DNA of 64,000 nt from Escherichia phage W22. The position numbers and the translations under genes are program-made. The notes below the pieces were generated by a model, which did not search any database, had not been told where the DNA came from, and worked only from the letters and a program-made list of their open reading frames with translations. Location of the stretch: the sequence record PV159336; one strand, given 5' to 3'. Shown one piece after another: positions 3,958 to 49,689 of this stretch; position 1 is the first letter of the stretch, and each line of letters starts with the position of its first letter.

Positions 3958-4342
3958 CTACACTCTCCTTCAATTGTTCAATAGCATCTGCTGCTTCAAT
4001 ATACTTACCTCTATACATTGCTTTTAAAGCCTTACGAACAAGATCATCGTCCGTGTATAAATCAATTAGCTGATTAGCTAACTCAATTTTTACAGGATTT
4101 TTTAAGTTAGGGTAGGCTTCATACAACATATTGTAATATTTATCACTCAATTCTTTTTCAATATGAATAACGTGAATTGCTTTGTTTAGGTTGATCACAC
4201 GATCACCTTTGTTTCGACAAGCATACTTAGCTAACTTAGTGAAACAAGGAGTTGCACCAATTAGATATGCAAGTTCCAAAGGTTGCATACGCATACGTTT
4301 GTAGTGATCACCATCAATTTGAATATCCAGTGCTGTAGTCAT
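3941..4342 (-). CDS. hypothetical protein (133 aa)
   Basis: ORF track; preceded by hairpin terminator of upstream gene. Confidence 0.4.
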   Translation of the reverse strand: MTTALDIQIDGDHYKRMRMQPLELAYLIGATPCFTKLAKYACRNKGDRVINLNKAIHVIHIEKELSDKYYNMLYEAYPNLKNPVKIELANQLIDLYTDDDLVRKALKAMYRGKYIEAADAIEQLKESVDGFSW

Positions 4343-4351
4343 AAATCCTCC

Positions 4352-4380
4352 AAAAATAAAGGGGCTTTCGCCCCTTTTTA
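4352..4380 (-). terminator. rho-independent terminator
   Basis: AAAGGGGC-TTTCG-CCCCTTTTTATT between exonuclease gene end and next gene. Confidence 0.5.
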
Positions 4381-5343
4381 TTAAATTCCAATAACAGTGT
4401 TTACACGCTTCTCTTTGCTACGTAAATTAACACGTCCACGAGACAGGCTATTACAGGATGTGCATCTTAGCACTTGGAATGTACTAACCGCTGTTGTGTA
4501 AACCTTACCAGGAACAACTTCAAGGTGCTCTTTACCGCAACGAGGACAACGAAGTTTTTCATCGTCATAGAATGCAGATACGTTAGGATGTTGTGGAATC
4601 CACGCACGAAGTTTGATGTAAAGATCTCTAAGAGAAACAACATCACCATCGTTGTATGTTTGCATACGGAAGAAGGCGTGTCTGTCTCCTTCACAACATG
4701 CTTTCCACAAAGGAAAACCTTCATTATCAAGTTTAAAGTTTTCTGTATCAAAATACAAACACATTTCTTTAAGCGCATTAGAAGGTAGTGCAAACTGCTT
4801 CTTAGCTGCCTTGAGTGTATCAATCACAACATAGTGTGATGGTGGCTCCATACCGTGAAAAGCAAAACGTTGGTTAATATAAGCCTTATCAAACTTAATA
4901 CCGTTGTGTGCGATCACAATATCTGCATCGTCAAGCAAGTGCCACAGATCTTGACATAATTCCCAATCATCTGTATGATCTATGTCAAACAGAGGGTAAT
5001 TGCTAAGGTTCTTACCTTCTACTTCTCCTGTTTCTAAATCAGCAGATGAATAGGAAAGCAAGTAACCTCGACGAATAACTTGTTCAGGTGCAATAAAGGC
5101 TTTGAAACGTGAGAAGCTATACACAATCTCCGGTGCTGTCTCTACGTCAATAATTTTAATTACTGGCCCACCTTTATCTTGCGGAGCACCGCGATGTGGT
5201 GAATTTACACGAGCTAAGTAATCATTTACTGTGCTCTTCTTAGTAGAACTTCCCAACACCTCTTGTGCAATCTTACGCGAAGAATAACCTTGTGCTTTCA
5301 TAGATACAATCAAGGCTTTCTGTTCGTCTGTTAATTTACTCAA
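4381..5343 (-). CDS. DnaQ-like (DEDD) 3'-5' exonuclease with N-terminal helix-turn-helix
   Basis: 320 aa; exo motifs IIDVETAP, HNGIKFDKAY, YNDGDV; C-terminal CPRCG...CTSCN zinc ribbon. Confidence 0.6.
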   Translation of the reverse strand: MSKLTDEQKALIVSMKAQGYSSRKIAQEVLGSSTKKSTVNDYLARVNSPHRGAPQDKGGPVIKIIDVETAPEIVYSFSRFKAFIAPEQVIRRGYLLSYSSADLETGEVEGKNLSNYPLFDIDHTDDWELCQDLWHLLDDADIVIAHNGIKFDKAYINQRFAFHGMEPPSHYVVIDTLKAAKKQFALPSNALKEMCLYFDTENFKLDNEGFPLWKACCEGDRHAFFRMQTYNDGDVVSLRDLYIKLRAWIPQHPNVSAFYDDEKLRCPRCGKEHLEVVPGKVYTTAVSTFQVLRCTSCNSLSRGRVNLRSKEKRVNTVIGI

Positions 5344-6374
5344 TGTTCCTCCTGCTCTGAAATATATGCTTGTAGCATACTTTCAAAAGTTGTTTCATCA
5401 TTCGCCCAACGTTTCATATATACCAACTGAAAAATTGTCTCTATCCATTCGTCAGTTGTCATCTCTACTTCTTCACCATCCCAAGAAGTAAATTTAACGC
5501 CATCTGGGAACCATTCATAATACTGATCTTTAACTGTCTGAAAAAGTTCAGCCTGTGTTTTACATTTGGAAATAAGATTAAAGCAAGTAATATCTCCAAA
5601 CTTAACATCGAAATCTTGGTAAGGTCGAATACTATCTGTCTTATCGCCCATTAACATTTGATAAGCTAACCAGTAACTACCCCAACCCTTAATTTCTTTT
5701 TTCTTACCTTTTTCTACGATCCAGATATCACCGATAGATTCATCAATCAGAATAATGCAAGGATTTTTATAAACACCATCCTCTTTATAAAAGTTAAAGA
5801 GTAAACTTGGTGTGTGCAAGCTATCTTTGTCGATAGATGCTACAATATGAGAAAACTTACCAGTTTCCTTGTAGGCTTTATACCCTGCATATCCATAGAT
5901 TTCTAAAGCATCATCTGCCTCAATACCAGTAACAACGTCACCGTTATGTTTTTCAACTAGATAATCTTTAGTATCTGATAAATGGATTGGTCTTAAATCT
6001 GATCGTTCTGATTTATATTCTTTTGGCATTTTGAAAGAATGCCGGAAGGTTTTTCCTACCCCGATGACACCGCAATACTTTTGAAGTTTTAGGTGATCCA
6101 TCATCTGGGTTATTTTTGTCTTTGCAGCTTGAAACGTAAAAGAAATATTATCTGGGACTATTTGAACATCTTTTATTTCAAAATCTTCTCTAGAGAACAA
6201 CTTCTTACCAGCAGCTTCGCGTTGCGCGTTAAGTGCTCCTAACCATCCTCCAATATTTTTTGAAGATTTACCCCAAAAATCTGTTCTTGTTTCAAACTCT
6301 TTTACATTACCGGAAGCCTTATGTACAGCGTGGATTTTTCTTTGTTCTAAAGCTGAAGATGCTTGGAACGCCAC
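5340..6374 (-). CDS. hypothetical protein (344 aa), possibly nuclease-like
   Basis: ORF track; Asp/Glu-rich patches (GIEADDALEIYGY, ILIDES) but no firm motif. Confidence 0.4.
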   Translation of the reverse strand: MAFQASSALEQRKIHAVHKASGNVKEFETRTDFWGKSSKNIGGWLGALNAQREAAGKKLFSREDFEIKDVQIVPDNISFTFQAAKTKITQMMDHLKLQKYCGVIGVGKTFRHSFKMPKEYKSERSDLRPIHLSDTKDYLVEKHNGDVVTGIEADDALEIYGYAGYKAYKETGKFSHIVASIDKDSLHTPSLLFNFYKEDGVYKNPCIILIDESIGDIWIVEKGKKKEIKGWGSYWLAYQMLMGDKTDSIRPYQDFDVKFGDITCFNLISKCKTQAELFQTVKDQYYEWFPDGVKFTSWDGEEVEMTTDEWIETIFQLVYMKRWANDETTFESMLQAYISEQEEH

Positions 6375-18973: not shown

Positions 18974-19049
18974 GGTTCCATAGCTCACTGACGAGAGCGC
19001 ACACCTCATAAGTGTCGAGGGCAGGGATTGTAACCCTGGGGAACCACCA
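18974..19049 (+). tRNA. tRNA, anticodon CAT (Met or Ile2), atypical T-loop
   Basis: Manual fold: acceptor GGTTCC/GGAACC, anticodon loop CTCATAA, CCA encoded. Confidence 0.45.
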
Positions 19050-19080
19050 TTTAAAAGGAGGTGCTATGCATCTCCTATAT

Positions 19081-19166
19081 GCAAGTGTGGTGGAATTGGT
19101 GATACACATTGTGCTTAAAACGCAACGCTTAAATGCTTGAGGGTTCGAATCCCTCCACTTGCACCA
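19081..19166 (+). tRNA. tRNA-Leu (anticodon TAA)
   Basis: Manual fold: acceptor GCAAGTG/CACTTGC, loop CTTAAAA, long variable arm, T-loop GGTTCGAATCC, CCA. Confidence 0.6.
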
Positions 19167-19168
19167 AC

Positions 19169-19273
19169 GCCTAGTAGGGTATTTGGTAATTCCGAGGCCA
19201 TCAAAGCCTGAAAAATATGTTAGACCGCTTTGTCTAACTAAATACGAAATATGGTTCGATTCCATAACTAGGC
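19169..19273 (+). ncRNA. atypical tRNA-like element (about 105 nt; possible UCA anticodon; no CCA)
   Basis: Perfect 7-bp acceptor GCCTAGT/ACTAGGC, T-arm TATGG-TTCGATT-CCATA, anticodon-like hairpin with loop CATCAAA, 7-bp extra arm GTTAGAC/GTCTAAC. Confidence 0.3.
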
Positions 19274-19306
19274 TTCAATTTAAATAATAATTTTAGTAAA
19301 AATATC

Positions 19307-19335
19307 TTGACATTCACTTAGTTTTTTGTTATAGT
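19307..19335 (+). promoter_or_regulatory. sigma70-like promoter (TTGACA, 17 nt, TGt-TATAGT)
   Basis: Near-consensus promoter inside the tRNA cluster. Confidence 0.5.
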
Positions 19336-19345
19336 TACTGTGAAA

Positions 19346-19427
19346 ACGGGGTGTATCTCACCTGACTTCTAATCAGGCGTTAACCGAGTAATTGGAGTAT
19401 GCAGGTTCGAATCCTGTCACCCCGACC
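19346..19427 (+). ncRNA. atypical tRNA-like element (anticodon-like loop CTTCTAA, no recognisable D-arm)
   Basis: Perfect acceptor CGGGGTG/CACCCCG plus ACCA, T-arm GCAGG-TTCGAAT-CCTGT, hairpin CCTGA-CTTCTAA-TCAGG only 7 nt after the acceptor. Confidence 0.35.
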
Positions 19428-19446
19428 AAAAAGTTTTTAAAAACTA

Positions 19447-19475
19447 CTTGACAAGCAAGATAGTTTTATGTTAGA
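19447..19475 (+). promoter_or_regulatory. sigma70-like promoter (TTGACA, 17 nt, TGt-TAGATT)
   Basis: Sequence match inside the tRNA cluster. Confidence 0.45.
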
Positions 19476-19491
19476 TTTAAAGTATGATAAC

Positions 19492-19581
19492 GGGAAGGTA
19501 GGGCGCAGCGGTGCGCAACCAGGTTTGAACCCTGGCCCATTGTAGCGATACGGTGATGGTTCGACTCCATTATCTTCCTCC
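19492..19581 (+). tRNA. tRNA-Ser (anticodon TGA)
   Basis: Manual fold: acceptor GGAAGGT/ATCTTCC, stem CCAGG/CCTGG with loop TTTGAAC, long variable arm, CCA. Confidence 0.55.
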
Positions 19582-19600
19582 AAATTCAACTAGGAGCTTT

Positions 19601-19753
19601 ATGAATTATAAAACTATTGGACAGGTTGTTACCGGAGTTAAGATTGTAGATAATAAAGTTGTTTATGAGTATTCTAATCTTCAACAATCTGAAGATGGTA
19701 AGAATATTCGTATGGTAAAAGCAGAACAAAAAGATTCCGGTTGTTTTGAATAA
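19601..19753 (+). CDS. small hypothetical protein (50 aa)
   Basis: ORF track 19553..19753 overlaps tRNA-Ser; internal ATG after AGGAG RBS chosen. Confidence 0.35.
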   Translation: MNYKTIGQVVTGVKIVDNKVVYEYSNLQQSEDGKNIRMVKAEQKDSGCFE

Positions 19754-19761
19754 TTAAGAAC

Positions 19762-19847
19762 GGTAGATTGGTGAAATGGTAGCCACAACAGTTTGCTAAA
19801 CTGTCGTCGGAAACGGCGTGTAGGTTCAAGTCCTACATCTACCGCCA
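19762..19847 (+). tRNA. tRNA-Ser (anticodon GCT)
   Basis: Manual fold: acceptor GGTAGAT/ATCTACC, stem ACAGT/ACTGT loop TTGCTAA, long variable arm, discriminator G, CCA. Confidence 0.6.
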
Positions 19848-19974
19848 AGTTATCTTTAATGTAGCTTGTAATCTTACTTTAATAGAGTAAACTTTCGGCA
19901 GATGGCCCCCCACCATCTTACCGATATCCCATAGTCAAGTGCCGCAAACACTGGCTATTTTAAAGATAATTTAT

Positions 19975-20050
19975 ACATCGTTAGCTTAGTTGGTAGAGCA
20001 AGGGGCTTTTAACTCCAAGGTCGAAGGTTCGAATCCTTCACGATGTACCA
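19975..20050 (+). tRNA. tRNA-Lys (anticodon TTT)
   Basis: Manual fold: acceptor ACATCGT/ACGATGT, D-arm GCTTAGTTGGTAGAGC, loop CTTTTAA, T-loop GGTTCGAATCC, CCA. Confidence 0.6.
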
Positions 20051-20055
20051 AACAC

Positions 20056-20142
20056 GTAGGTATCGCATAGCGGCAATTGCTGGAGACTGTAAATCTCTTG
20101 CCCTTCGGGGCTTCGTTGGTTCGAGTCCAACTACCTGCACCA
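20056..20142 (+). tRNA. tRNA-Tyr (anticodon GTA)
   Basis: Manual fold: acceptor GTAGGTA/TACCTGC, stem GGAGA/TCTCT loop CTGTAAA, long variable arm, CCA. Confidence 0.6.
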
Positions 20143-20149
20143 AATTAAA

Positions 20150-20234
20150 GATGGATTGGCCTAGTGGTTGGGCGACGGACTGTTAATCCGTGAACGAAAG
20201 TTCTAGCAAGGTTCAAATCCTTGATCCATCGCCA
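20150..20234 (+). tRNA. tRNA with Asn anticodon GTT on a class-II (long variable arm) scaffold
   Basis: Manual fold: acceptor GATGGAT/ATCCATC, stem ACGGA/TCCGT loop CTGTTAA, 15-nt variable arm GAAC-GAAA-GTTC, discriminator G, CCA. Confidence 0.45.
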
Positions 20235-20241
20235 GAATTAT

Positions 20242-20318
20242 GGACTTGTAGAGTTAAGGTAAACCTCCAGTCGCCAAGAGGCTTCTGGAATTGCAGGTAT
20301 CGAATCCTGCCGAGTCCA
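20242..20318 (+). ncRNA. atypical tRNA-like element (anticodon unresolved, 8-nt T-loop, no CCA)
   Basis: 7-bp acceptor GGACTTG/CGAGTCC and T-arm GCAGG-TATCGAAT-CCTGC; no clean anticodon arm found. Confidence 0.3.
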
Positions 20319-20324
20319 AGTATT

Positions 20325-20399
20325 GCTCCTATCGTATAACGGCTATTACGGTTGCCTTGTAAGCAACTTATCAGGGTTCGAGTCCTTGTGGGAGCACCA
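20325..20399 (+). tRNA. tRNA-Thr (anticodon TGT)
   Basis: Manual fold: acceptor GCTCCTA/TGGGAGC, stem GTTGC/GCAAC loop CTTGTAA, CCA. Confidence 0.6.
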
Positions 20400-20416
20400 A
20401 TTTTAACTCTAAAGGA

Positions 20417-20746
20417 GTGTATGTGACAGAAAAAGAGTTAGAGAAATATTTTAATATCAATGTTTTCGATGGTTTTGATGATATTGAAGATGTTGAAAGA
20501 TATTATGAAGTAGAGTTAGATAAGGATAACATTGTAATTCTTTCTGCCACTTATGATTGTGCATATTATGAAGGTGAATCTCACGTTTATTTTTATGATA
20601 TGAAAACATCTTTGTTTTATGAAGTACACGCATATCATTGTTCTTGTTATGGCTTAGAAGGTCAGTGGGAACCTGAAGAAATAGGTGATTTGGACTTTAC
20701 TATTGCATATCTAAACAGACGTGGTGCATCTACTATTTTAAAATAA
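20417..20746 (+). CDS. hypothetical Cys/His-containing protein inside the tRNA cluster
   Basis: ORF track (109 aa); GTG start region after AAGGAG RBS; motif HAYHCSCYG. Confidence 0.45.
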   Translation: MYVTEKELEKYFNINVFDGFDDIEDVERYYEVELDKDNIVILSATYDCAYYEGESHVYFYDMKTSLFYEVHAYHCSCYGLEGQWEPEEIGDLDFTIAYLNRRGASTILK

Positions 20747-20760
20747 ATATCAAAAGCCTC

Positions 20761-20789
20761 TTGACAAAGGGGCTAATAATATGTTAGAG
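20761..20789 (+). promoter_or_regulatory. sigma70-like promoter (TTGACA, 17 nt, TGt-TAGAGT)
   Basis: Sequence match upstream of tRNA-Gly. Confidence 0.45.
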
Positions 20790-20801
20790 TAATATTGTTA
20801 A

Positions 20802-20876
20802 GCGGGTATAGTGTTAATGGTAGCATATGAGGTTTCCACCCTCCAGGTGCAGGTTCAAGTCCTGTTACTCGCTCCA
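20802..20876 (+). tRNA. tRNA-Gly (anticodon TCC)
   Basis: Manual fold: acceptor GCGGGTA/TACTCGC, loop TTTCCAC, T-loop GGTTCAAGTCC, CCA. Confidence 0.55.
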
Positions 20877-20975
20877 AGATTATTTAAATGGAATCGCTAG
20901 AGAAAATTTCTCTTTTCGCTCATGGTTTTCTCCTTCAAACTCTAGCGGTTCTTTTTAAGTGATTTTTAGTTTTAT

Positions 20976-21050
20976 TGGAGATTAGCCTAGTGGGAAGGCA
21001 ACGGCCTTTGAAGTCGTGATGACTAGGTTCGATTCCTAGATCTCCAGCCA
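20976..21050 (+). tRNA. tRNA-Gln (anticodon TTG)
   Basis: Manual fold: acceptor TGGAGAT/ATCTCCA, stem ACGGC/GTCGT loop CTTTGAA, T-loop GGTTCGATTCC, CCA. Confidence 0.55.
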
Positions 21051-21057
21051 GTATTTA

Positions 21058-21133
21058 CAGTGCGTAGCGCAGTTGGTAGCGTGGGAGCTTTGGATGCTTC
21101 GGGTCGCAGGTTCGAGTCCTGCCGCACTGACCA
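21058..21133 (+). tRNA. tRNA-Pro (anticodon TGG)
   Basis: Manual fold: acceptor CAGTGCG/CGCACTG, D-arm GCGCAGTTGGTAGCG, loop TTTGGAT, T-loop GGTTCGAGTCC, CCA. Confidence 0.55.
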
Positions 21134-21138
21134 AATTT

Positions 21139-21213
21139 GCAGAGATAGCTGAGACGGATTAGTGCTACCCTGAAAAGGTAGAAAGGATGGATCGTTACCA
21201 TCTCTCTGCACCA
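21139..21213 (+). tRNA. tRNA-Phe (anticodon GAA), atypical T-loop
   Basis: Manual fold: acceptor GCAGAGA/TCTCTGC, stem CTACC/GGTAG loop CTGAAAA, CCA. Confidence 0.5.
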
Positions 21214-21289
21214 AATAACACCATCCAAGGAGTAGACTTGGTTAACTGTCAATAGCACATTGAGGCTTCTTACAGTGGTGTATTTTTAT

Positions 21290-21374
21290 GGCTAAGTGGT
21301 GGAATGGTATACACGATACGCTTAGAACGTATTGCCCCAAGGGATTGTGAGTTCGAGTCTCACCTTAGCTACCA
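21290..21374 (+). tRNA. tRNA-Leu (anticodon TAG)
   Basis: Manual fold: acceptor GGCTAAG/CTTAGCT, stem ATACG/CGTAT loop CTTAGAA, long variable arm, CCA. Confidence 0.6.
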
Positions 21375-21462
21375 TATCTAAGAGATATCATAGGGTTTGC
21401 AACGGATATCTACCGTCCTGTTAAGGATACCACGCCAAGACGGGTTATAAAGGGTTAGCCAT

Positions 21463-21538
21463 TGATAGTGTGAAGCTGGCGTTTCGAGTGCTTTCATAAG
21501 GCATTGCGAGAAGAGTTCGATTCTCTTACTATCAACCA
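21463..21538 (+). tRNA. tRNA, anticodon CAT (Met, fMet or Ile2)
   Basis: Manual fold, 76 nt: acceptor TGATAGT/ACTATCA, loop TTCATAA, T-arm AAGAG-TTCGATT-CTCTT, CCA. Confidence 0.55.
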
Positions 21539-21553
21539 AATTACTACAGATTG

Positions 21554-21632
21554 CGCGGGATAGAGGAGTCTGGTCGTCCTCGCCAGTTTCATATGCTGGA
21601 GATCGTAGGTTCAAATCCTACTCCCGCCTCCA
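21554..21632 (+). tRNA. tRNA, anticodon CAT (Met, fMet or Ile2)
   Basis: Manual fold: D-stem GAGG/CCTC, stem CCAGT/GCTGG loop TTCATAT, T-loop GGTTCAAATCC, CCA; one acceptor mismatch. Confidence 0.45.
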
Positions 21633-21697
21633 ATAAATACCTCCCTTCTGGTGTAATGATTAAGTTACATTGACACTTCAAGGAACTTATAGCCGGG

Positions 21698-21773
21698 TAG
21701 ATTTAAAAGAGTATGGTACTCAATATGGCTCCAAACCATAGATCAAGGGGTTCGATTCCTCACCTTGCTGCCA
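21698..21773 (+). ncRNA. tRNA-Trp-like element (anticodon-like loop CTCCAAA) with unpaired acceptor
   Basis: Perfect stem TATGG/CCATA with loop CTCCAAA, T-arm with TTCGATT loop, 3' CCA; no complementary 5' acceptor strand found. Confidence 0.3.
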
Positions 21774-21778
21774 ATTAT

Positions 21779-21854
21779 TGTGGTATCGTACAGATGGTTA
21801 GTACACTCGACCGATAATCGAGAAACAACGGTTCGACTCCGTTTACCACGACCA
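21779..21854 (+). tRNA. tRNA-Ile (anticodon GAT)
   Basis: Manual fold: acceptor TGTGGTA/TACCACG, D-arm GTACAGATGGTTAGTAC, stem CTCGA/TCGAG loop CCGATAA, T-loop GGTTCGACTCC, CCA. Confidence 0.55.
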
Positions 21855-44905: not shown

Positions 44906-47065
44906 ATGAAACAGGCTATTTTTACTGTAACTCGAAATACGAGAGTAAATGCCAGTTCATTCAGCTATAAGACCGTCGATGGAACGGCGGTCGCTGGTAG
45001 AGATTATGTAGCTAAACAGGGAACAGTAACGTTCCCTTCTGATGCAGATTCTGCTACTGTAGTGGTTGATGTATATGAACGTCCGGCAAACTCTTTAGAT
45101 CTTTATTTTACTCTTGAGATTACTAGCATAAGTCAAAATAACATGATGATCAACGAAGAAATTCGTTGTGTTATTACGACTGATCAATCGAATACAACCC
45201 CGCTAACTTGGCCTGTTGTGAAGTCTAGAATGTTTGATCCTAAGTTTTGGACAATAGATTCTCAAGCAACAGAAAGTTGTTCTATTATCTCTAATGGTGA
45301 TTCTTTCACAGCAAGAATGGTTAATAGGACAGTGGCTGGTCTTGCTGGGATTATTTGGTCAACTTACGATAAATATGATCACAAAGGATTAGGCTACCAA
45401 GAACATTCTGACTTAAGTAAAGAGAAACTTTGGTTTAAAATGGAACTTAGTCAAGGTGTTCCTGGATTAAAAGAAGAAAAATTAATACCATCCTTAACAG
45501 TGACACTGAAGGATGAAACAGTTCATTATGTATCTCTAAACTTTTATGCAGAAGAAGTTTCAGAGGATGGTAAAACAGCAACAATCAAACTAGATTTCTC
45601 AAATTTAAAATCTGGGCCAGAAAATGATATTGTTGTTGACACTACACAGATAGATAATATGTTCTTCTCCTTGATCTCAACGAGGTATCAAGAAATTGAA
45701 GATATTATTCCTGTAGACAATGAGGATCTTTCCTTTAAGTTTACCATACTGGAGCCTGATACTGGTTACAGTATGATGAATATGGGTAATTTAAATGTTC
45801 CAGCACACACCATAAGAATGTGTACATCTTATGATGATATGTATAACCTGACCCCAGAGCGAGTTATTTCTAACACCTACAGATTAGGTTATAGGGATAT
45901 GATTAACCACTATAATGGTATGTCACACTATTATCAGTTTAGTTGGGATGCTGGTTCTAATAAATGGGCTTTGAATAGAACAGAATATTTAAACCCAGCA
46001 ACAGAAGCATGGTTTGATAATTTCCACGCTAATGCAAAAGCTATGGGCTACACAGTAATGAATTCCTTAAGTTTTGAACTTATGAGTACAGTGTGTCCTG
46101 TAGAATGGGTACAACATACTTGGAATGATAATCTTGCTGCTACAGGTTATGAGCCACCAAGTTATGTTTTATCTCCTTCAATTGATGAAGGGATGAATTA
46201 TTTACAAGGTGTAATAAATAAGATAGCTTCTATATCCGCTGCTAATGATCTTCCGGTTATTATTCAGGTTGGTGAACCGTGGTGGTGGTATAACACAGCT
46301 ACCAATCTACCGTGTATTTATGATTATACAACCAAAGTTGCATTTAATAATGAAACTGGATTGTATGCACAAGATGTTGGTACAGTTAAAAATTATAAAA
46401 CTGGTACACCATATGATGAATATTATGCATTCCTATCTAAAACATTAGGACTGCGTGTTGCTAAATTTGCAACAGATACCAGATTAGCATATCCTGGAGC
46501 TAAAGTTACATTGTTACCATTTGTGCCATCCATTTTGGGTAACGGTATGATGGAATTTGTTAACTTCCCTAAAGATTATTATATCCCAGAAAACTTTGAC
46601 TTTTATTGTTCAGAATGTTATGATTGGTTGTTGGAAGGTAAGATGGAAAGATCTTTCGACGCTATCACAATACCTAATGAGCAACTAGGTTTTAGTTATG
46701 ATAAGATACATTATCTTGCAGGGTTTGTTCCAGATGCAACTCTAGCACCATTATATGGCTTTGATCCTGAATCAGACTACAGAACATATTTGTGGAAAAT
46801 GATTATAGGTAATATTGTATTGAATGACCAGAAGTTTGTTGGTTTATATCAATACATATGGGCTTATCCACAAATAATGCATGATTCAATAACTGTTCTT
46901 AATTCAAAATCCCAAGTTTTTTATATGGGTAATGTGCCTTTGAATTGCTATTTGCAAGATATCACTCTTAAACAGGTAAATGTTACGATTGCTACTATAA
47001 GCGGAATTACATTAGCCACTAAATCTGGAGAAGATTTAGTAACAACACAAAAATTTTATATATAG
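44906..47065 (+). CDS. tail-associated structural protein
   Basis: 719 aa ORF. Confidence 0.4.
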   Translation: MKQAIFTVTRNTRVNASSFSYKTVDGTAVAGRDYVAKQGTVTFPSDADSATVVVDVYERPANSLDLYFTLEITSISQNNMMINEEIRCVITTDQSNTTPLTWPVVKSRMFDPKFWTIDSQATESCSIISNGDSFTARMVNRTVAGLAGIIWSTYDKYDHKGLGYQEHSDLSKEKLWFKMELSQGVPGLKEEKLIPSLTVTLKDETVHYVSLNFYAEEVSEDGKTATIKLDFSNLKSGPENDIVVDTTQIDNMFFSLISTRYQEIEDIIPVDNEDLSFKFTILEPDTGYSMMNMGNLNVPAHTIRMCTSYDDMYNLTPERVISNTYRLGYRDMINHYNGMSHYYQFSWDAGSNKWALNRTEYLNPATEAWFDNFHANAKAMGYTVMNSLSFELMSTVCPVEWVQHTWNDNLAATGYEPPSYVLSPSIDEGMNYLQGVINKIASISAANDLPVIIQVGEPWWWYNTATNLPCIYDYTTKVAFNNETGLYAQDVGTVKNYKTGTPYDEYYAFLSKTLGLRVAKFATDTRLAYPGAKVTLLPFVPSILGNGMMEFVNFPKDYYIPENFDFYCSECYDWLLEGKMERSFDAITIPNEQLGFSYDKIHYLAGFVPDATLAPLYGFDPESDYRTYLWKMIIGNIVLNDQKFVGLYQYIWAYPQIMHDSITVLNSKSQVFYMGNVPLNCYLQDITLKQVNVTIATISGITLATKSGEDLVTTQKFYI

Positions 47066-47073
47066 GAGTAAAA

Positions 47074-47988
47074 ATGTCAACTACAATTACTAATTTACCC
47101 GAAACATCAAAAGTTAATGGTTCAGATTACCTGGTTTTAGATCAATCTGATAAAACTGTTAAAAGCACAGTTTCCAACTTTCTTACTGACACTGGGGTGG
47201 TTAAAGATTACACTCGTCCTAATATCCGTCAGTTGATCCGCGACCGTGAGGAAGCATTGATCGGAAACAAGGTTCGCTTTGTAACATGGAACACTCAAGG
47301 ATATAACAGTGTGTACAAGTATTATGGAAAAGACTTCGCTAACCAACAACGTGTAACAGACTTGACAGAGTGGTTCCTTCGCATAGGGGCTGATTTTGTG
47401 GGATCACAAGAAGTCTGGTCTGTGCCAGATCAACCGGATAGATTCTTCGCACAATATCCGTATATTTCTGCTTTCCAGTCTATCTCTCTTTGGGAATCAT
47501 CGCTAGGACGCCGCTACGGAAACCTGGCAGTAGCTACACGCGCTTTGAACAACAGTACGTTTAAGATTTATGACTCTCAGCCTATCCCTGGTGACACCGA
47601 TAAGGAACTCCGTTCATATATCCGAACGGAAATGACGGTAGCAGGAACGACCATCGCAATCTACGTCACACACTTGTCTCTTAATCAGACACGCATAAAT
47701 GAAGAGATTGCCGAGTTGGGGCTGGCAATGCAGAACGACACAGCGACGCACATCGTTGTCATGGGGGACTGGAACACTAACACTGATACTGACTTCGCGC
47801 CGTTCACCGATCATGGATTCACTATGGTGAACAGGTTCGGTGAATTTAACACCAACAACGTTGGCAATACCTGGTATCTCGACCGAATTTTCTACAAAGG
47901 TTTCTCGGCTGAAGATGATCGCGGGGTCTTTGATACTCCTGTGTCACTTGGCGACCACAAGGCTCTCTATGTAGATCTGGTAATTTAA
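47074..47988 (+). CDS. tail-anchored endonuclease/exonuclease/phosphatase (EEP) family hydrolase
   Basis: 304 aa; fibre-type N-terminus then EEP-like motifs WNTQGY, SQEVW, GDWNTN, SLGDHKALY; GC content visibly higher than flanks. Confidence 0.5.
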   Translation: MSTTITNLPETSKVNGSDYLVLDQSDKTVKSTVSNFLTDTGVVKDYTRPNIRQLIRDREEALIGNKVRFVTWNTQGYNSVYKYYGKDFANQQRVTDLTEWFLRIGADFVGSQEVWSVPDQPDRFFAQYPYISAFQSISLWESSLGRRYGNLAVATRALNNSTFKIYDSQPIPGDTDKELRSYIRTEMTVAGTTIAIYVTHLSLNQTRINEEIAELGLAMQNDTATHIVVMGDWNTNTDTDFAPFTDHGFTMVNRFGEFNTNNVGNTWYLDRIFYKGFSAEDDRGVFDTPVSLGDHKALYVDLVI

Positions 47989-48000
47989 GGGGAAAGGAAA

Positions 48001-49308
48001 ATGAATTTACATACAATTGACGCAAACATACTTGACATGCAGGGGCTGCCTTTGGATCTCCGCATCAACAAGATGCTGTCAGACATCAACCGCCTGTATC
48101 AACGAGGGCAGGTTATACTGCTTACTAAGTTTGCTGATTTAGGTCTTGCTGACACCGAAGCTACAATGGCAAATGTGTTCGCTCGTATGCCTAATAACAC
48201 CATCTTTATGACTGAAGTTTACCGTGGTGTTCACACCAATTTCGACATGCCGACACTAATCAACGGTGCGAGATTATCTGGACGGTTGATTGTCTATGGT
48301 TCGTCCGAGTCAAGTAACAAATTGACTGCATACTTTCAGCAAGAAACAGGTTTGTGGACACGCCACCTGAACAAAGGTGCTGCCACAAATTATACCGATA
48401 CGGGATGGCATAAGATTGAAGTTCATGGTTTGCAAGAGGATCTAACCACAAGCTCTGTGACTAATCTTGAAAACAAGCTGTCAAACCTAAAAACGCCAGG
48501 CATCTATTACATAGCTGGTAGCATAATGTCACAATTCACAGACGTGCCCACAACAGGTTCAGGAGCATCACTGTGTGAAGTGACCTATATTCACCATCTG
48601 GCTGACACAATACAGACTTTGCGTACCAACGGGGTTGCTCAGACCGGGTGGCGTAGACAAATTTCTAACAATGGAACTGTTGGGGAATGGAAACAGGAGT
48701 TTGTTAGTGGCTCTCCTATGAATAGTTCGTCTACTATAAGTTTCGCCGGGGGAACTGTTTCTGGGACATTAACTACAAGGACGCTCCAACCTGAAAAAAC
48801 AGCAACCCACAACATCGGTTATGCTTCTGCTGCATACAATCAAGCGTATTTTCAGAATGCGCCCACAGTTGTTTCTGATGTGAATTATAAACTATTCATA
48901 GACGATATTCCTGACGATGTTTTGGATGCGTGGAGCACGGTTAACTACTATCAGTGGAAAATGAAAACTGCTGTTGCGGAGAAAGGTGAGGAAAAAGCGC
49001 GCCTTCATGTAGGTGTCCTTGCACAAGAAATCAAAGAGAAGTTTGAAGCTGCTGGTTTGGATGCAACCAAGTATGGCATTCTTATCTATGATTGTTGGGA
49101 AGCTGTTGAGGCTGTTGAATATAAACCTGCTGTATACGATCCAGATACTAACGAATTAATCTCTGAAGAAGTTCAGGCTGTTGAAGGACGTGAAGCAGGT
49201 GAGATCTGGATGGTGCGAATGGAAGAGTGTCTTGCTTTAGAAGCGGCACTGATGCGCCGGACTACAAAACGACTGGAAGATCGCATGGCTGCTCTGGAAG
49301 GCAAGTAA
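48001..49308 (+). CDS. tail fibre protein with C-terminal chaperone-like domain
   Basis: 435 aa; C-terminal region rich in LE..R..ALE repeats; shares the GC shift of 47074. Confidence 0.4.
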   Translation: MNLHTIDANILDMQGLPLDLRINKMLSDINRLYQRGQVILLTKFADLGLADTEATMANVFARMPNNTIFMTEVYRGVHTNFDMPTLINGARLSGRLIVYGSSESSNKLTAYFQQETGLWTRHLNKGAATNYTDTGWHKIEVHGLQEDLTTSSVTNLENKLSNLKTPGIYYIAGSIMSQFTDVPTTGSGASLCEVTYIHHLADTIQTLRTNGVAQTGWRRQISNNGTVGEWKQEFVSGSPMNSSSTISFAGGTVSGTLTTRTLQPEKTATHNIGYASAAYNQAYFQNAPTVVSDVNYKLFIDDIPDDVLDAWSTVNYYQWKMKTAVAEKGEEKARLHVGVLAQEIKEKFEAAGLDATKYGILIYDCWEAVEAVEYKPAVYDPDTNELISEEVQAVEGREAGEIWMVRMEECLALEAALMRRTTKRLEDRMAALEGK

Positions 49309-49310
49309 AT

Positions 49311-49335
49311 AAAGCCCCGCTTCGGCGGGGAATTA
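49311..49335 (+). terminator. hairpin terminator
   Basis: AAAGCCCCGC-TTCG-GCGGGG hairpin with weak U-tract. Confidence 0.45.
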
Positions 49336-49539
49336 TAAAGGTACTATCATGGTCTTCATTACGATTCACACAAACTATGTCCTGCAAGCGCATGTCATCG
49401 CCATGTGATAAAATGATGAAAACATATCGTAGCAGGGTTAATCTTGTCTTTAGTTACTATCGTACTAACTCAAAATGTTGTCACTACCACTGCAAACCCC
49501 TCCAAAGAGGGGCTTACTTAGAAAAACAAAGAGGTTGTT

Positions 49540-49689
49540 ATGAACGAAATGTTCTCCCAAGGCGGTATTGCCCCAGGTACTACTGCCATTAGTCTTAGTG
49601 CTGCTGTACTTGTGCATTCAGCGGGTTCTGTAGACCTTGGGGAATTAGCTGTATATCGTGATTTAAAAAGTAATGAGAACGCACTATGA
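49540..49689 (+). CDS. small hypothetical protein (49 aa)
   Basis: Manual ORF MNEMFSQGGIAPGTTAISLSAAVLVHSAG... after AAAGAGG RBS; stop overlaps the next start as ATGA. Confidence 0.3.
   Translation: MNEMFSQGGIAPGTTAISLSAAVLVHSAGSVDLGELAVYRDLKSNENAL

Follow-up and report, generated by a model that had tools for sequence, protein, structure and literature searches.

Organization of the locus

We examined 64,000 nucleotides of DNA from Escherichia phage W22 (sequence record PV159336), referred to here as the window, which contains a cassette of two tail genes encoding an enzyme of the endonuclease/exonuclease/phosphatase (EEP) type and a chaperone-bearing partner protein. Both open reading frames (ORFs) lie on the plus strand, with gene 1 at 47074-47988 encoding 304 amino acids and gene 2 at 48001-49308 encoding 435 amino acids. 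The source genome is of the phi92-like myovirus type (Justusliebigvirus/Phapecoctavirus, Stephanstirmvirinae), and the DNA flanking the cassette is ~98% identical to PD114, PD06, phi92 and many other phages. By synteny, the cassette is positioned between the homologs of phi92 gp142 and gp144, i.e. in the slot of the endosialidase gp143 (endoN92). Phages of the phi92 type are known to bear multiple co-expressed spikes and fibres (PMC11984140).

The EEP domain of gene 1

Gene 1 starts behind a ribosome-binding region, TAGGAGTAAAA, which stands before the ATG at 47063-47073 on the plus strand (sequence read directly), is part of the backbone common to phi92-like relatives, and matches the position of an AGGAG ribosome-binding site in the phi92 annotation. 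Codons 1-43 (47074-47202, plus strand), whose G+C of 0.34 is backbone-like, encode the baseplate anchor peptide of the gp143 slot, where 40 of the 43 residues (93%) are identical to phi92 gp143/endoN92 and identity reaches 100% in UAB_1, KMB37, and ESCO8. A solved structure was looked for, both for this anchor and for the phi92 baseplate, and none was found. One match, to AV126/KKP_3264, extended as far as residue 135 and was rejected as similarity of the anchor only with a spurious extension, the protein itself being a different spike of 668 residues.

Codons 44-304 and the stop codon (47203-47988, plus strand) mark the start of the imported DNA and encode a linker helix followed by a phosphoesterase domain with the EEP fold. 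Residues 70-295 match the Pfam family PF03372 (Exo_endo_phos) over profile positions 1-225 of 225 (E=4.3e-12, 46.7 bits, cut-off 24.5), and the protein also matches phrog_34101 and phrog_31166, the first labelled 'unknown function' in PHROGs and the second 'tail fiber protein'. An AlphaFold2 model built from 8 sequences, with a predicted local distance difference test score (pLDDT) of 62 and a predicted template modelling score of 0.67, is good in the C-terminal half and poor over residues 75-134. This model has the four-layer alpha/beta sandwich of the EEP fold, and Foldseek aligns it with EEP structures at a probability of 1.0 and E-values down to 5e-12, while sequence identity is just 13-18%. 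The structures matched are those of TDP2, Bacteroides EEP proteins with the mannose-6-phosphatase Bt3783, neutral sphingomyelinase, and nocturnin. The initial annotation, made from the DNA letters and their translations, had proposed that a tail-fibre-type anchor precedes an EEP-like domain in gene 1, naming the motifs WNTQGY, SQEVW, GDWNTN, and SLGDHKALY; all four are present in the translation of the ORF at the coordinates given, the anchor is the one shared with endoN92 and several relatives, and a hidden Markov model (HMM) search, the fold comparison, and the retained catalytic residues described below all place the domain among EEP enzymes.

HMMER, run exhaustively against 1.84 billion cluster representatives, returned 134 relatives of gene 1, 42 of them at E<=1e-10, and in nearly all of these best matches the EEP domain is C-terminal. 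Such an enzyme on a virion tail is indeed as unusual as had been supposed, and full-text literature searches turned up no account of an EEP domain in a phage tail or tail fibre. Across 39 homologs, which are 24-58% identical, the only invariant columns are N73, E113, H200, D232, N234, D270, D294, and H295, and these constitute the canonical catalytic and metal-binding set of EEP enzymes. That the catalytic set alone is invariant argues strongly for a working enzyme, and the EEP domain of gene 1 is strongly predicted to be a catalytically competent, metal-dependent phosphoesterase. All 39 relatives match PF03372, and the anchors recognised among them (Tail_spike_N in 13, T7 tail-fibre N in 5, and P22 head-binding in 2) point to a tail-borne clade of EEP proteins.

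The profile of this 39-sequence family matches uncharacterised bacterial EEPs at E=1e-12 and sphingomyelinase C and beta-hemolysin at 3e-7 to 4e-5, with nucleases spanning 0.2-1.4 (ExoIII/APE 0.2-0.6, TDP2 1.3). Even so, the similarity to sphingomyelinase is remote, with E=3e-7 reached over ~185 profile positions. A sequence search of the PDB with gene 1 alone or with an 8-sequence profile gave no meaningful match, the EEP matches coming with the 39-sequence profile. NCBIfam gave no match for either gene, and no pectate-lyase, sialidase, or other glycosidase domain of Pfam is present in either; the catalytic domain here is an EEP fold rather than the beta-helix or beta-propeller of a classical depolymerase. 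The isoelectric points of the EEP domains, 4.7-6.3, were judged not to discriminate between substrates and were not used.

The partner protein encoded by gene 2

The two genes are separated by a spacer of 12 nucleotides (47989-48000, plus strand), which holds the ribosome-binding site of gene 2, GGGGAAAGGAAA (sequence read directly). Residues 1-225 of gene 2 (48001-48675, plus strand) form the partner N-domain, of which residues 7-223 match phrog_22156 (E=1e-16), another PHROGs family of 'unknown function'; homologs of this domain are CR44b gp17.01, CrRp3 cds9, and Se-J gp099. Homolog alignment and phrog matches delimit the C-terminal end of the mature protein, a short stalk or tip formed by residues 226-291 (48676-48873, plus strand), where matches to the C-terminal parts of phrog tail fibres begin at ~residue 227. 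Here, pLDDT is low, as expected when a trimeric segment is modelled as a monomer, and the stalk is presumably trimerised by the chaperone that follows it. This chaperone, residues 292-435 with the stop codon (48874-49308, plus strand), is an intramolecular chaperone of the Peptidase_S74 type with an S292/K297 dyad. Pfam matches residues 292-353 above its cut-off (E=4e-11), structural matches are found to 3gw6 and 3gud, and the residues S292, D293, N295, and K297 do not vary across 10 homologs of gene 2. The chaperone would be self-cleaving, with the predicted cut at Ser292 releasing a mature product of ~291 residues. Overall, the structure models of gene 1 and gene 2 are both of modest quality.

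Gene 2 had initially been described as a fibre with a C-terminal chaperone-like module. The chaperone holds, down to its Ser/Lys dyad and its structural counterparts, while the word fibre overstates what remains after processing, a globular N-domain on a short stalk. One relative of gene 2 (P0023) has 63% identity over residues 1-260, being strongly diverged over approximately the first 200 residues and near-identical from ~201 to ~415, a mosaicism that indicates recombination between the N-domain and the part comprising stalk and chaperone.

A two-gene unit carried on diverse tails

Genes 1 and 2 are an obligate, co-transferred unit. When HMMs for both domains were used, the EEP ORF was found to be followed directly by the partner ORF on the same strand in 21 of 21 loci, which span Stephanstirmvirinae, Drexlerviridae, Studiervirinae, Molineuxvirinae, Slopekvirinae, and Ackermannviridae, and which also include a contig with SU10-type (kuravirus) adaptor and portal genes as well as temperate-like contigs. 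The unit occurs on myo-, sipho-, and podoviruses and is joined to at least five different anchors. The EEP and partner domains have also diverged together, their pairwise identities being correlated at r=0.90 (Mantel p<=2e-4). Among isolated phages, the pair is present in BEK2/BEK3 (Drexlerviridae), at 57% identity for gene 1 and 57.5% for gene 2; in CR44b, CR8, and Cronobacter phage B1 (Kayfunavirus); in CrRp3 (Vectrevirus); in Proteus phage PM116 (Acadevirus); in Pseudomonas phage PA28 (Novosibovirus); and in Salmonella phage Se-J (Kuttervirus), where it is located at the tailspike locus. It is found in addition on the SU10-like contig, on two temperate-like contigs, and on L008, a contig of 131 kb from another type of phage. 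A scan of IMG/VR with a 9-sequence alignment recovered only 3 loci.

The gap between the two genes is 7-12 nucleotides in long-form pairs, while in short-form pairs the genes directly adjoin each other or share a few bases. In W22, both genes share one frame 12 nucleotides apart, and a read-through fusion was considered and rejected, given that the frame relation differs in L008, L011, L012, and BEK2; this variation among homologs indicates two separate proteins. The CR44b record notes mass-spectrometric detection of the partner in virions. As gene 2 has no recognisable anchor of its own, is constantly linked to the EEP gene, and has a counterpart in the CR44b virion, we infer that the EEP protein carries it.

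The temperate-like versions of the unit adjoin a convergent Acyl_transf_3 gene, which comes after the EEP and partner genes on the minus strand (6223-7170 in L011, 6201-7403 in L012), with holin/lysozyme and Bro-N genes as further neighbours. The Acyl_transf_3 family includes O-antigen acetylases of seroconverting phages, and the two neighbouring genes are possibly O-antigen acetyltransferases of the seroconversion type. A search of 5,426 complete E. coli genomes, by megablast with the L011 and L012 modules and by blastn with the module of the window, revealed no prophage copy of the unit.

Base composition of the cassette

The DNA of the cassette is compositionally distinct. In 400-bp windows, G+C lies at 0.44-0.485 across 47,200-49,600 and at 0.31-0.39 to either side, and when the 64 kb are divided into non-overlapping blocks of 2,235 bp, the cassette is the top block, with a G+C of 0.446 against a mean of 0.380 (standard deviation 0.018, z=3.7). 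G+C at third codon positions (GC3) is 0.44 over the 696 codons of the cassette and 0.26 over the 2,790 codons of six flanking late genes (Fisher p=6e-20), and the choice of Leu, Arg, and Gly codons differs between the same two sets (p=4e-5, 6e-6, and 2e-4, respectively). The initial annotation had called the region of 47.1-49.3 kb richer in G+C than the flanking late genes, with frequent CTG, CGC, and GGC codons, and had taken this as a sign of recent horizontal acquisition. Greater richness in G+C is borne out by the sliding-window analysis, where the cassette is the maximum of the window. With regard to codons, CTG (14/56 vs 16/194) and CGC (14/36 vs 7/93) are commoner in the cassette than in the flanking late genes, while GGC shows no clear excess (6/48 vs 20/206, not significant), the shift in Gly codons going instead to GGG and GGA. 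The shift also begins not at the start of gene 1 but at ~47,200 within it, with codons 1-43 retaining a backbone-like GC3 of 0.23 to match their G+C, and the raised G+C persists beyond gene 2 to ~49,690, in a spacer common to relatives. Both a compositional break and an EEP fold are thus found at this locus.

G+C is raised at just two other places in the window, an array of 16 tRNA genes (18,974-21,854) and the head-decoration and major-head genes (29,117-30,532), and neither coincides with a break in homology. The tRNA array, which explains the peak near 21 kb, contains three tRNA-Met genes and readers of AT-rich codons, Leu-TAA and Leu-TAG. Directly upstream of the cassette, the gp142 homolog (44906-47065) carries a Calx-beta domain together with the N-terminal and TIM-barrel domains of a 'non-contractile tail sheath' (PF23844, PF23845), and it matches the chains Gp64 and 'Non-contractile tail sheath' of PDB entry 9lc0; among relatives, the labels of this protein vary between tail fiber, capsid and scaffold, and tail assembly.

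Exchange boundaries and horizontal acquisition

Nucleotide homology to phi92-like relatives, as determined by megablast, breaks off at 47,202, where codon 43 of gene 1 ends, and resumes at ~49,307. Between these points, homology to L008 runs from 47,201 to 49,284 at 86.5% nucleotide identity. In L008 the module stands behind a P22-type head-binding anchor, and the flank similarity of this contig to the T4-like phage JSE is limited to a short stretch. The body of the cassette is in no isolated phage of a collection of 50,697 records, and four metagenomic phi92-like contigs contain it at 96-98% identity. In close relatives, the G+C of the module stays at 0.42-0.46 regardless of flanks that range from 0.37 to 0.51, and this stability fits a transfer whose composition has not yet been ameliorated to that of the phi92-type backbone. 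The cassette appears to have been acquired horizontally and exchanged as one piece into a hypervariable tailspike slot, a conclusion supported by the sequence comparisons, and the suggestion of recent acquisition thus finds its support in the homology break among relatives and in the module shared with an unrelated phage.

The breakpoints of the exchange are exact, with the left at codon 43/44 and the right at a conserved hairpin. The imported piece extends from 47,203 to ~49,310, as given by the switch in homology and composition at codon 43/44 and by the shared hairpin on the right. This hairpin, CCCCGC-TTCG-GCGGGG (49315-49330, plus strand), lies directly 3' of gene 2 and has a free energy of -15.1 kcal/mol (z=-3.15). 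Its core is identical in PD114, while phi92 has a shorter stem of 5 bp with the same TTCG loop. A terminator scan picks out the same structure in the minus-strand orientation, in which the stem is followed by a run of T, and the hairpin may serve as a terminator or as a stability element.

Beyond the hairpin, and outside the new import, lies a spacer of non-coding DNA (49331-49685, plus strand) with a weaker second hairpin (49497-49512, z=-1.4) and an ORF of 49 codons. The spacer is 95-99% identical in PD114, ZCKP1, UP17, and others and is missing from phi92 and from two contigs, L014 and L016, that contain the same cassette. In these two contigs, where the cassette has 96% nucleotide identity, gene 2 is separated from the gp144 homolog by 67 nucleotides, without the spacer of ~370 nucleotides, so that the right-hand junction varies among cassette carriers. 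The 49-residue ORF (49540-49689, plus strand; MNEMFSQGG...) follows an AAAGAGG ribosome-binding site and overlaps the start of the gp144 homolog. It is equivalent to a 102-residue ORF of PD114 shortened by an in-frame deletion of 159 nucleotides, and the ORF is labelled 'tailspike protein' in PD114 and in vB_Ec-G1. The ORF and P0003, an EEP homolog encoded by the contig with SU10-type adaptor and portal genes, match at their N-termini. From these resemblances, the ORF looks like an orphan tail-fibre anchor, the putative remnant of an older spike exchange.

Comparison with known systems

An exchangeable cassette of depolymerase or receptor-binding function in a hypervariable tailspike slot is a known kind of arrangement; what we rate as new are the EEP catalytic fold, the obligate two-protein organization, and the breadth of tails on which the unit occurs. 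The closest point of reference is phi92 gp143, which occupies the same slot, shares the 43-residue anchor (93%), and likewise ends in an S74 chaperone at the 3' end of the cassette. However, gp143 is a single polypeptide of 918 residues in which anchor, sialidase domain, and chaperone follow one another, while in W22 the enzyme and the chaperone are on separate ORFs, the chaperone belonging to the second protein, and the glycosidase is replaced by an EEP phosphoesterase.

BEK2/BEK3 contain the closest homologs of both genes among isolated phages, in the same order and with a long-form partner that includes the chaperone, but there the anchor is Tail_spike_N (PF18668) at the lateral-fibre locus of a siphovirus. 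The two products are labelled 'tail fibers protein' and, for the adjacent gene, hypothetical protein; a record note, 'binds polymannose O-antigen', appears to be copied from the L-shaped tail fibre of phage T5, and the structural match of gene 2 to the T5 fibre is confined to the C-terminal region that bears the chaperone. Literature on BEK2/BEK3 or on O152-specific tailspikes was sought, and none was found. In the podophages CR44b and CR8 (gp17 and gp17.01) and CrRp3 (cds10 and cds9), an anchored protein also ends in an EEP domain (36-39% identity) and is followed by a phrog_22156 partner (~22-26%). In contrast to W22, the anchors are of the T7 type or of other podovirus types, and the short-form partners (~275 residues) lack the S74 chaperone. 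The published note on CR44b names only the partner, as a putative tailspike, and leaves the EEP domain unmentioned (PMC4038870).

Among enzymes, the tail-associated GDPD (glycerophosphodiester phosphodiesterase) proteins resemble the enzyme proposed for gene 1 in being virion-borne phosphodiesterases aimed at phosphodiester-linked surface polymers, but their catalytic domain is a TIM barrel rather than the EEP alpha/beta sandwich. Such GDPD enzymes have been discussed in connection with enterococcal phages directed at teichoic acids (PMC10194240). A 151-kb phi92-like contig (L018; GCA_024672275.1) has such an enzyme in the gp143 slot itself: at 4001-6078, the same anchor is followed by Tail_spike_N and a GDPD domain (P0011; PF03009, E=6e-21), which by its sequence is a second phosphodiesterase, apparently recruited to the slot independently. 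The 255-residue gene downstream of it was considered as a relative of gene 2 and rejected, no relationship being found. Sphingomyelinase C and the beta-hemolysin of S. aureus are the best-scoring characterised EEPs, with the same catalytic residues and a non-nucleotide phosphodiester as their target, yet their identity to gene 1 is very low, and they are secreted monomeric toxins of membrane lipids with neither a phage anchor nor a partner gene. Finally, in the Klebsiella KP32-type RBP1/RBP2 system and in TSP1-4 of Ackermannviridae, an anchored protein bears an anchorless one and cassettes are exchanged at domain boundaries (PMC6872550, PMC11414711). In those systems, docking is mediated by short conserved peptides or by branching domains, while in the W22 cassette the sole candidate platform is the enzyme domain, on which gene 2 would dock.

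Proposed mechanism and substrate

The best explanation of the locus as a whole, and one to which we lend guarded confidence, is a two-protein host-recognition unit composed of a surface-glycan phosphodiesterase and a partner binding subunit. Under this proposal, the cassette was swapped as one piece into the phi92-like tailspike slot and replaced the endosialidase gp143. The resident 43-residue anchor of gene 1 would plug into the baseplate and present the imported EEP domain, while gene 2 would fold and trimerise by means of its C-terminal chaperone, which would then cleave itself off at Ser292. The mature gene 2 product, presumably a trimer, would dock on the EEP protein through its N-domain and act as the binding and specificity subunit. 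The EEP enzyme would then hydrolyse phosphodiester bridges in O-antigen or capsule, in a backbone built with sugar-1-phosphate or alditol-phosphate, and the thinning of the glycan layer would allow the phage to reach the outer membrane.

A surface glycan is favoured as the substrate, on circumstantial grounds, by the C. rodentium/O152 phages, the sphingomyelinase side of the family profile, the GDPD enzyme in the same slot, and the Acyl_transf_3 neighbours taken together. With respect to the first, the unit is found in three unrelated C. rodentium podophages, CR8, CR44b, and CrRp3. The C. rodentium O-antigen is like that of E. coli O152 (bioRxiv 10.1101/2025.03.14.643335), which contains an alpha-GlcNAc-(1->P->6)-alpha-Glc linkage (PMC3989065). 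Such sugar-phosphate-sugar links occur in only 6 of 182 E. coli serogroups, with alditol-phosphate links in 11 more (PMC9912281). Several points count against a glycan phosphodiesterase with a recognition partner. The link to C. rodentium and O152 is an association across three phages; for the other isolated carriers (phages of Salmonella, Cronobacter, Proteus, P. aeruginosa, and an E. coli host designated K514), no glycan was linked to a phosphodiester backbone; structural matching recognised no fold in the gene 2 N-domain; and by structure alone, with a model of the modest pLDDT noted above, the best Foldseek matches are the nucleic-acid phosphodiesterases of the TDP2 type.

This last point bears on the alternative of a virion-borne nuclease, which would break down extracellular DNA in the biofilm matrix and so open the way to the cells, or else introduce nicks into surface nucleic acid. 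DNase I, ExoIII, APE1, and TDP2 all belong to the EEP superfamily, the catalytic set of gene 1 is the same as in nucleases, and the top structural matches, at E=5e-12, are TDP2-DNA complexes. The family profile, however, scores nucleases far worse than sphingomyelinase-type enzymes, and Pfam shows no DNA-binding domain. Nor would a general nuclease of extracellular DNA need a co-evolving specificity partner, and a divergence down to 27% identity that keeps pace with host range is not what such an enzyme would lead one to expect; we consider a nuclease improbable. Less improbable, though still unlikely in our judgement, is an EEP enzyme that acts on a small phosphoester of the outer membrane, be it a phosphate, pyrophosphate, or phosphoethanolamine of the lipopolysaccharide (LPS) core or lipid A, or a phospholipid head group, with the effect of unmasking a receptor or locally weakening the membrane and with gene 2 again as the binding subunit. 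Here, the profile speaks in favour, as its nearest characterised relatives, sphingomyelinase C and beta-hemolysin, are lipid phosphodiesterases, and neutral sphingomyelinase is among the fold-search matches, although identity to sphingomyelinases is low. The presence of the unit in P. aeruginosa and Proteus phages also agrees with it. The LPS cores of P. aeruginosa and Proteus are heavily phosphorylated. Furthermore, resistance to the C. rodentium phage Eifel2 maps to the LPS core and not to the O-antigen, Eifel2 being a phage not shown to carry the unit (PMC12892995). A small target is at odds, however, with a slot that otherwise houses glycan depolymerases such as the endosialidase and with the Acyl_transf_3 gene beside the temperate-like versions, and a polymer accords better with the enrichment of the unit among phages whose host has an O-antigen bridged by phosphodiesters.

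It could also be supposed that the EEP domain is a structural adaptor only, a docking platform that links gene 2, as the true receptor-binding protein, to the anchor. Gene 2 indeed lacks its own anchor and is always adjacent, and branched receptor-binding complexes with adaptor domains are known from other phages (PMC6872550, PMC11414711). But among 39 sequences whose identity drops as low as 24%, no position is strictly invariant except the eight of the catalytic and metal-binding set, and an active site held invariant in this way reflects selection on catalysis rather than on a scaffold, leaving a purely structural role very improbable indeed.

Returning to the glycan phosphodiesterase with its recognition partner, the unit may further represent, as a tentative but serious possibility, the first recognised case of a new class of depolymerase. 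This would be a two-subunit tail EEP phosphodiesterase that cuts sugar-1-phosphate or alditol-phosphate bridges, for example those of O152 and C. rodentium, with glycan recognition assigned to the partner, and that is portable across the tails of myo-, sipho-, and podoviruses.

Significance

The virion enzymes known to us to act on surface glycans are glycosidases, lyases, and esterases or deacetylases, plus GDPD enzymes on the teichoic acids of Gram-positive hosts. If the W22 unit does cleave phosphodiester-bridged O-antigen or capsule, it would add a new catalytic class to the depolymerase repertoire, and it would account for phage attack on the rare phosphate-bridged serogroups O152, O173, O84, O160, O172, and O181, as well as on C. 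rodentium. The latter is a widely used mouse model. The same activity would also make the unit a compact and portable pair of enzyme and partner for the engineering of host range, or for glycan cleavage in vaccine and diagnostic work. For the phi92-type multivalent phages themselves, the breakpoints at codon 43/44 and at the hairpin behind the genes provide a worked example of how one spike is swapped for another.

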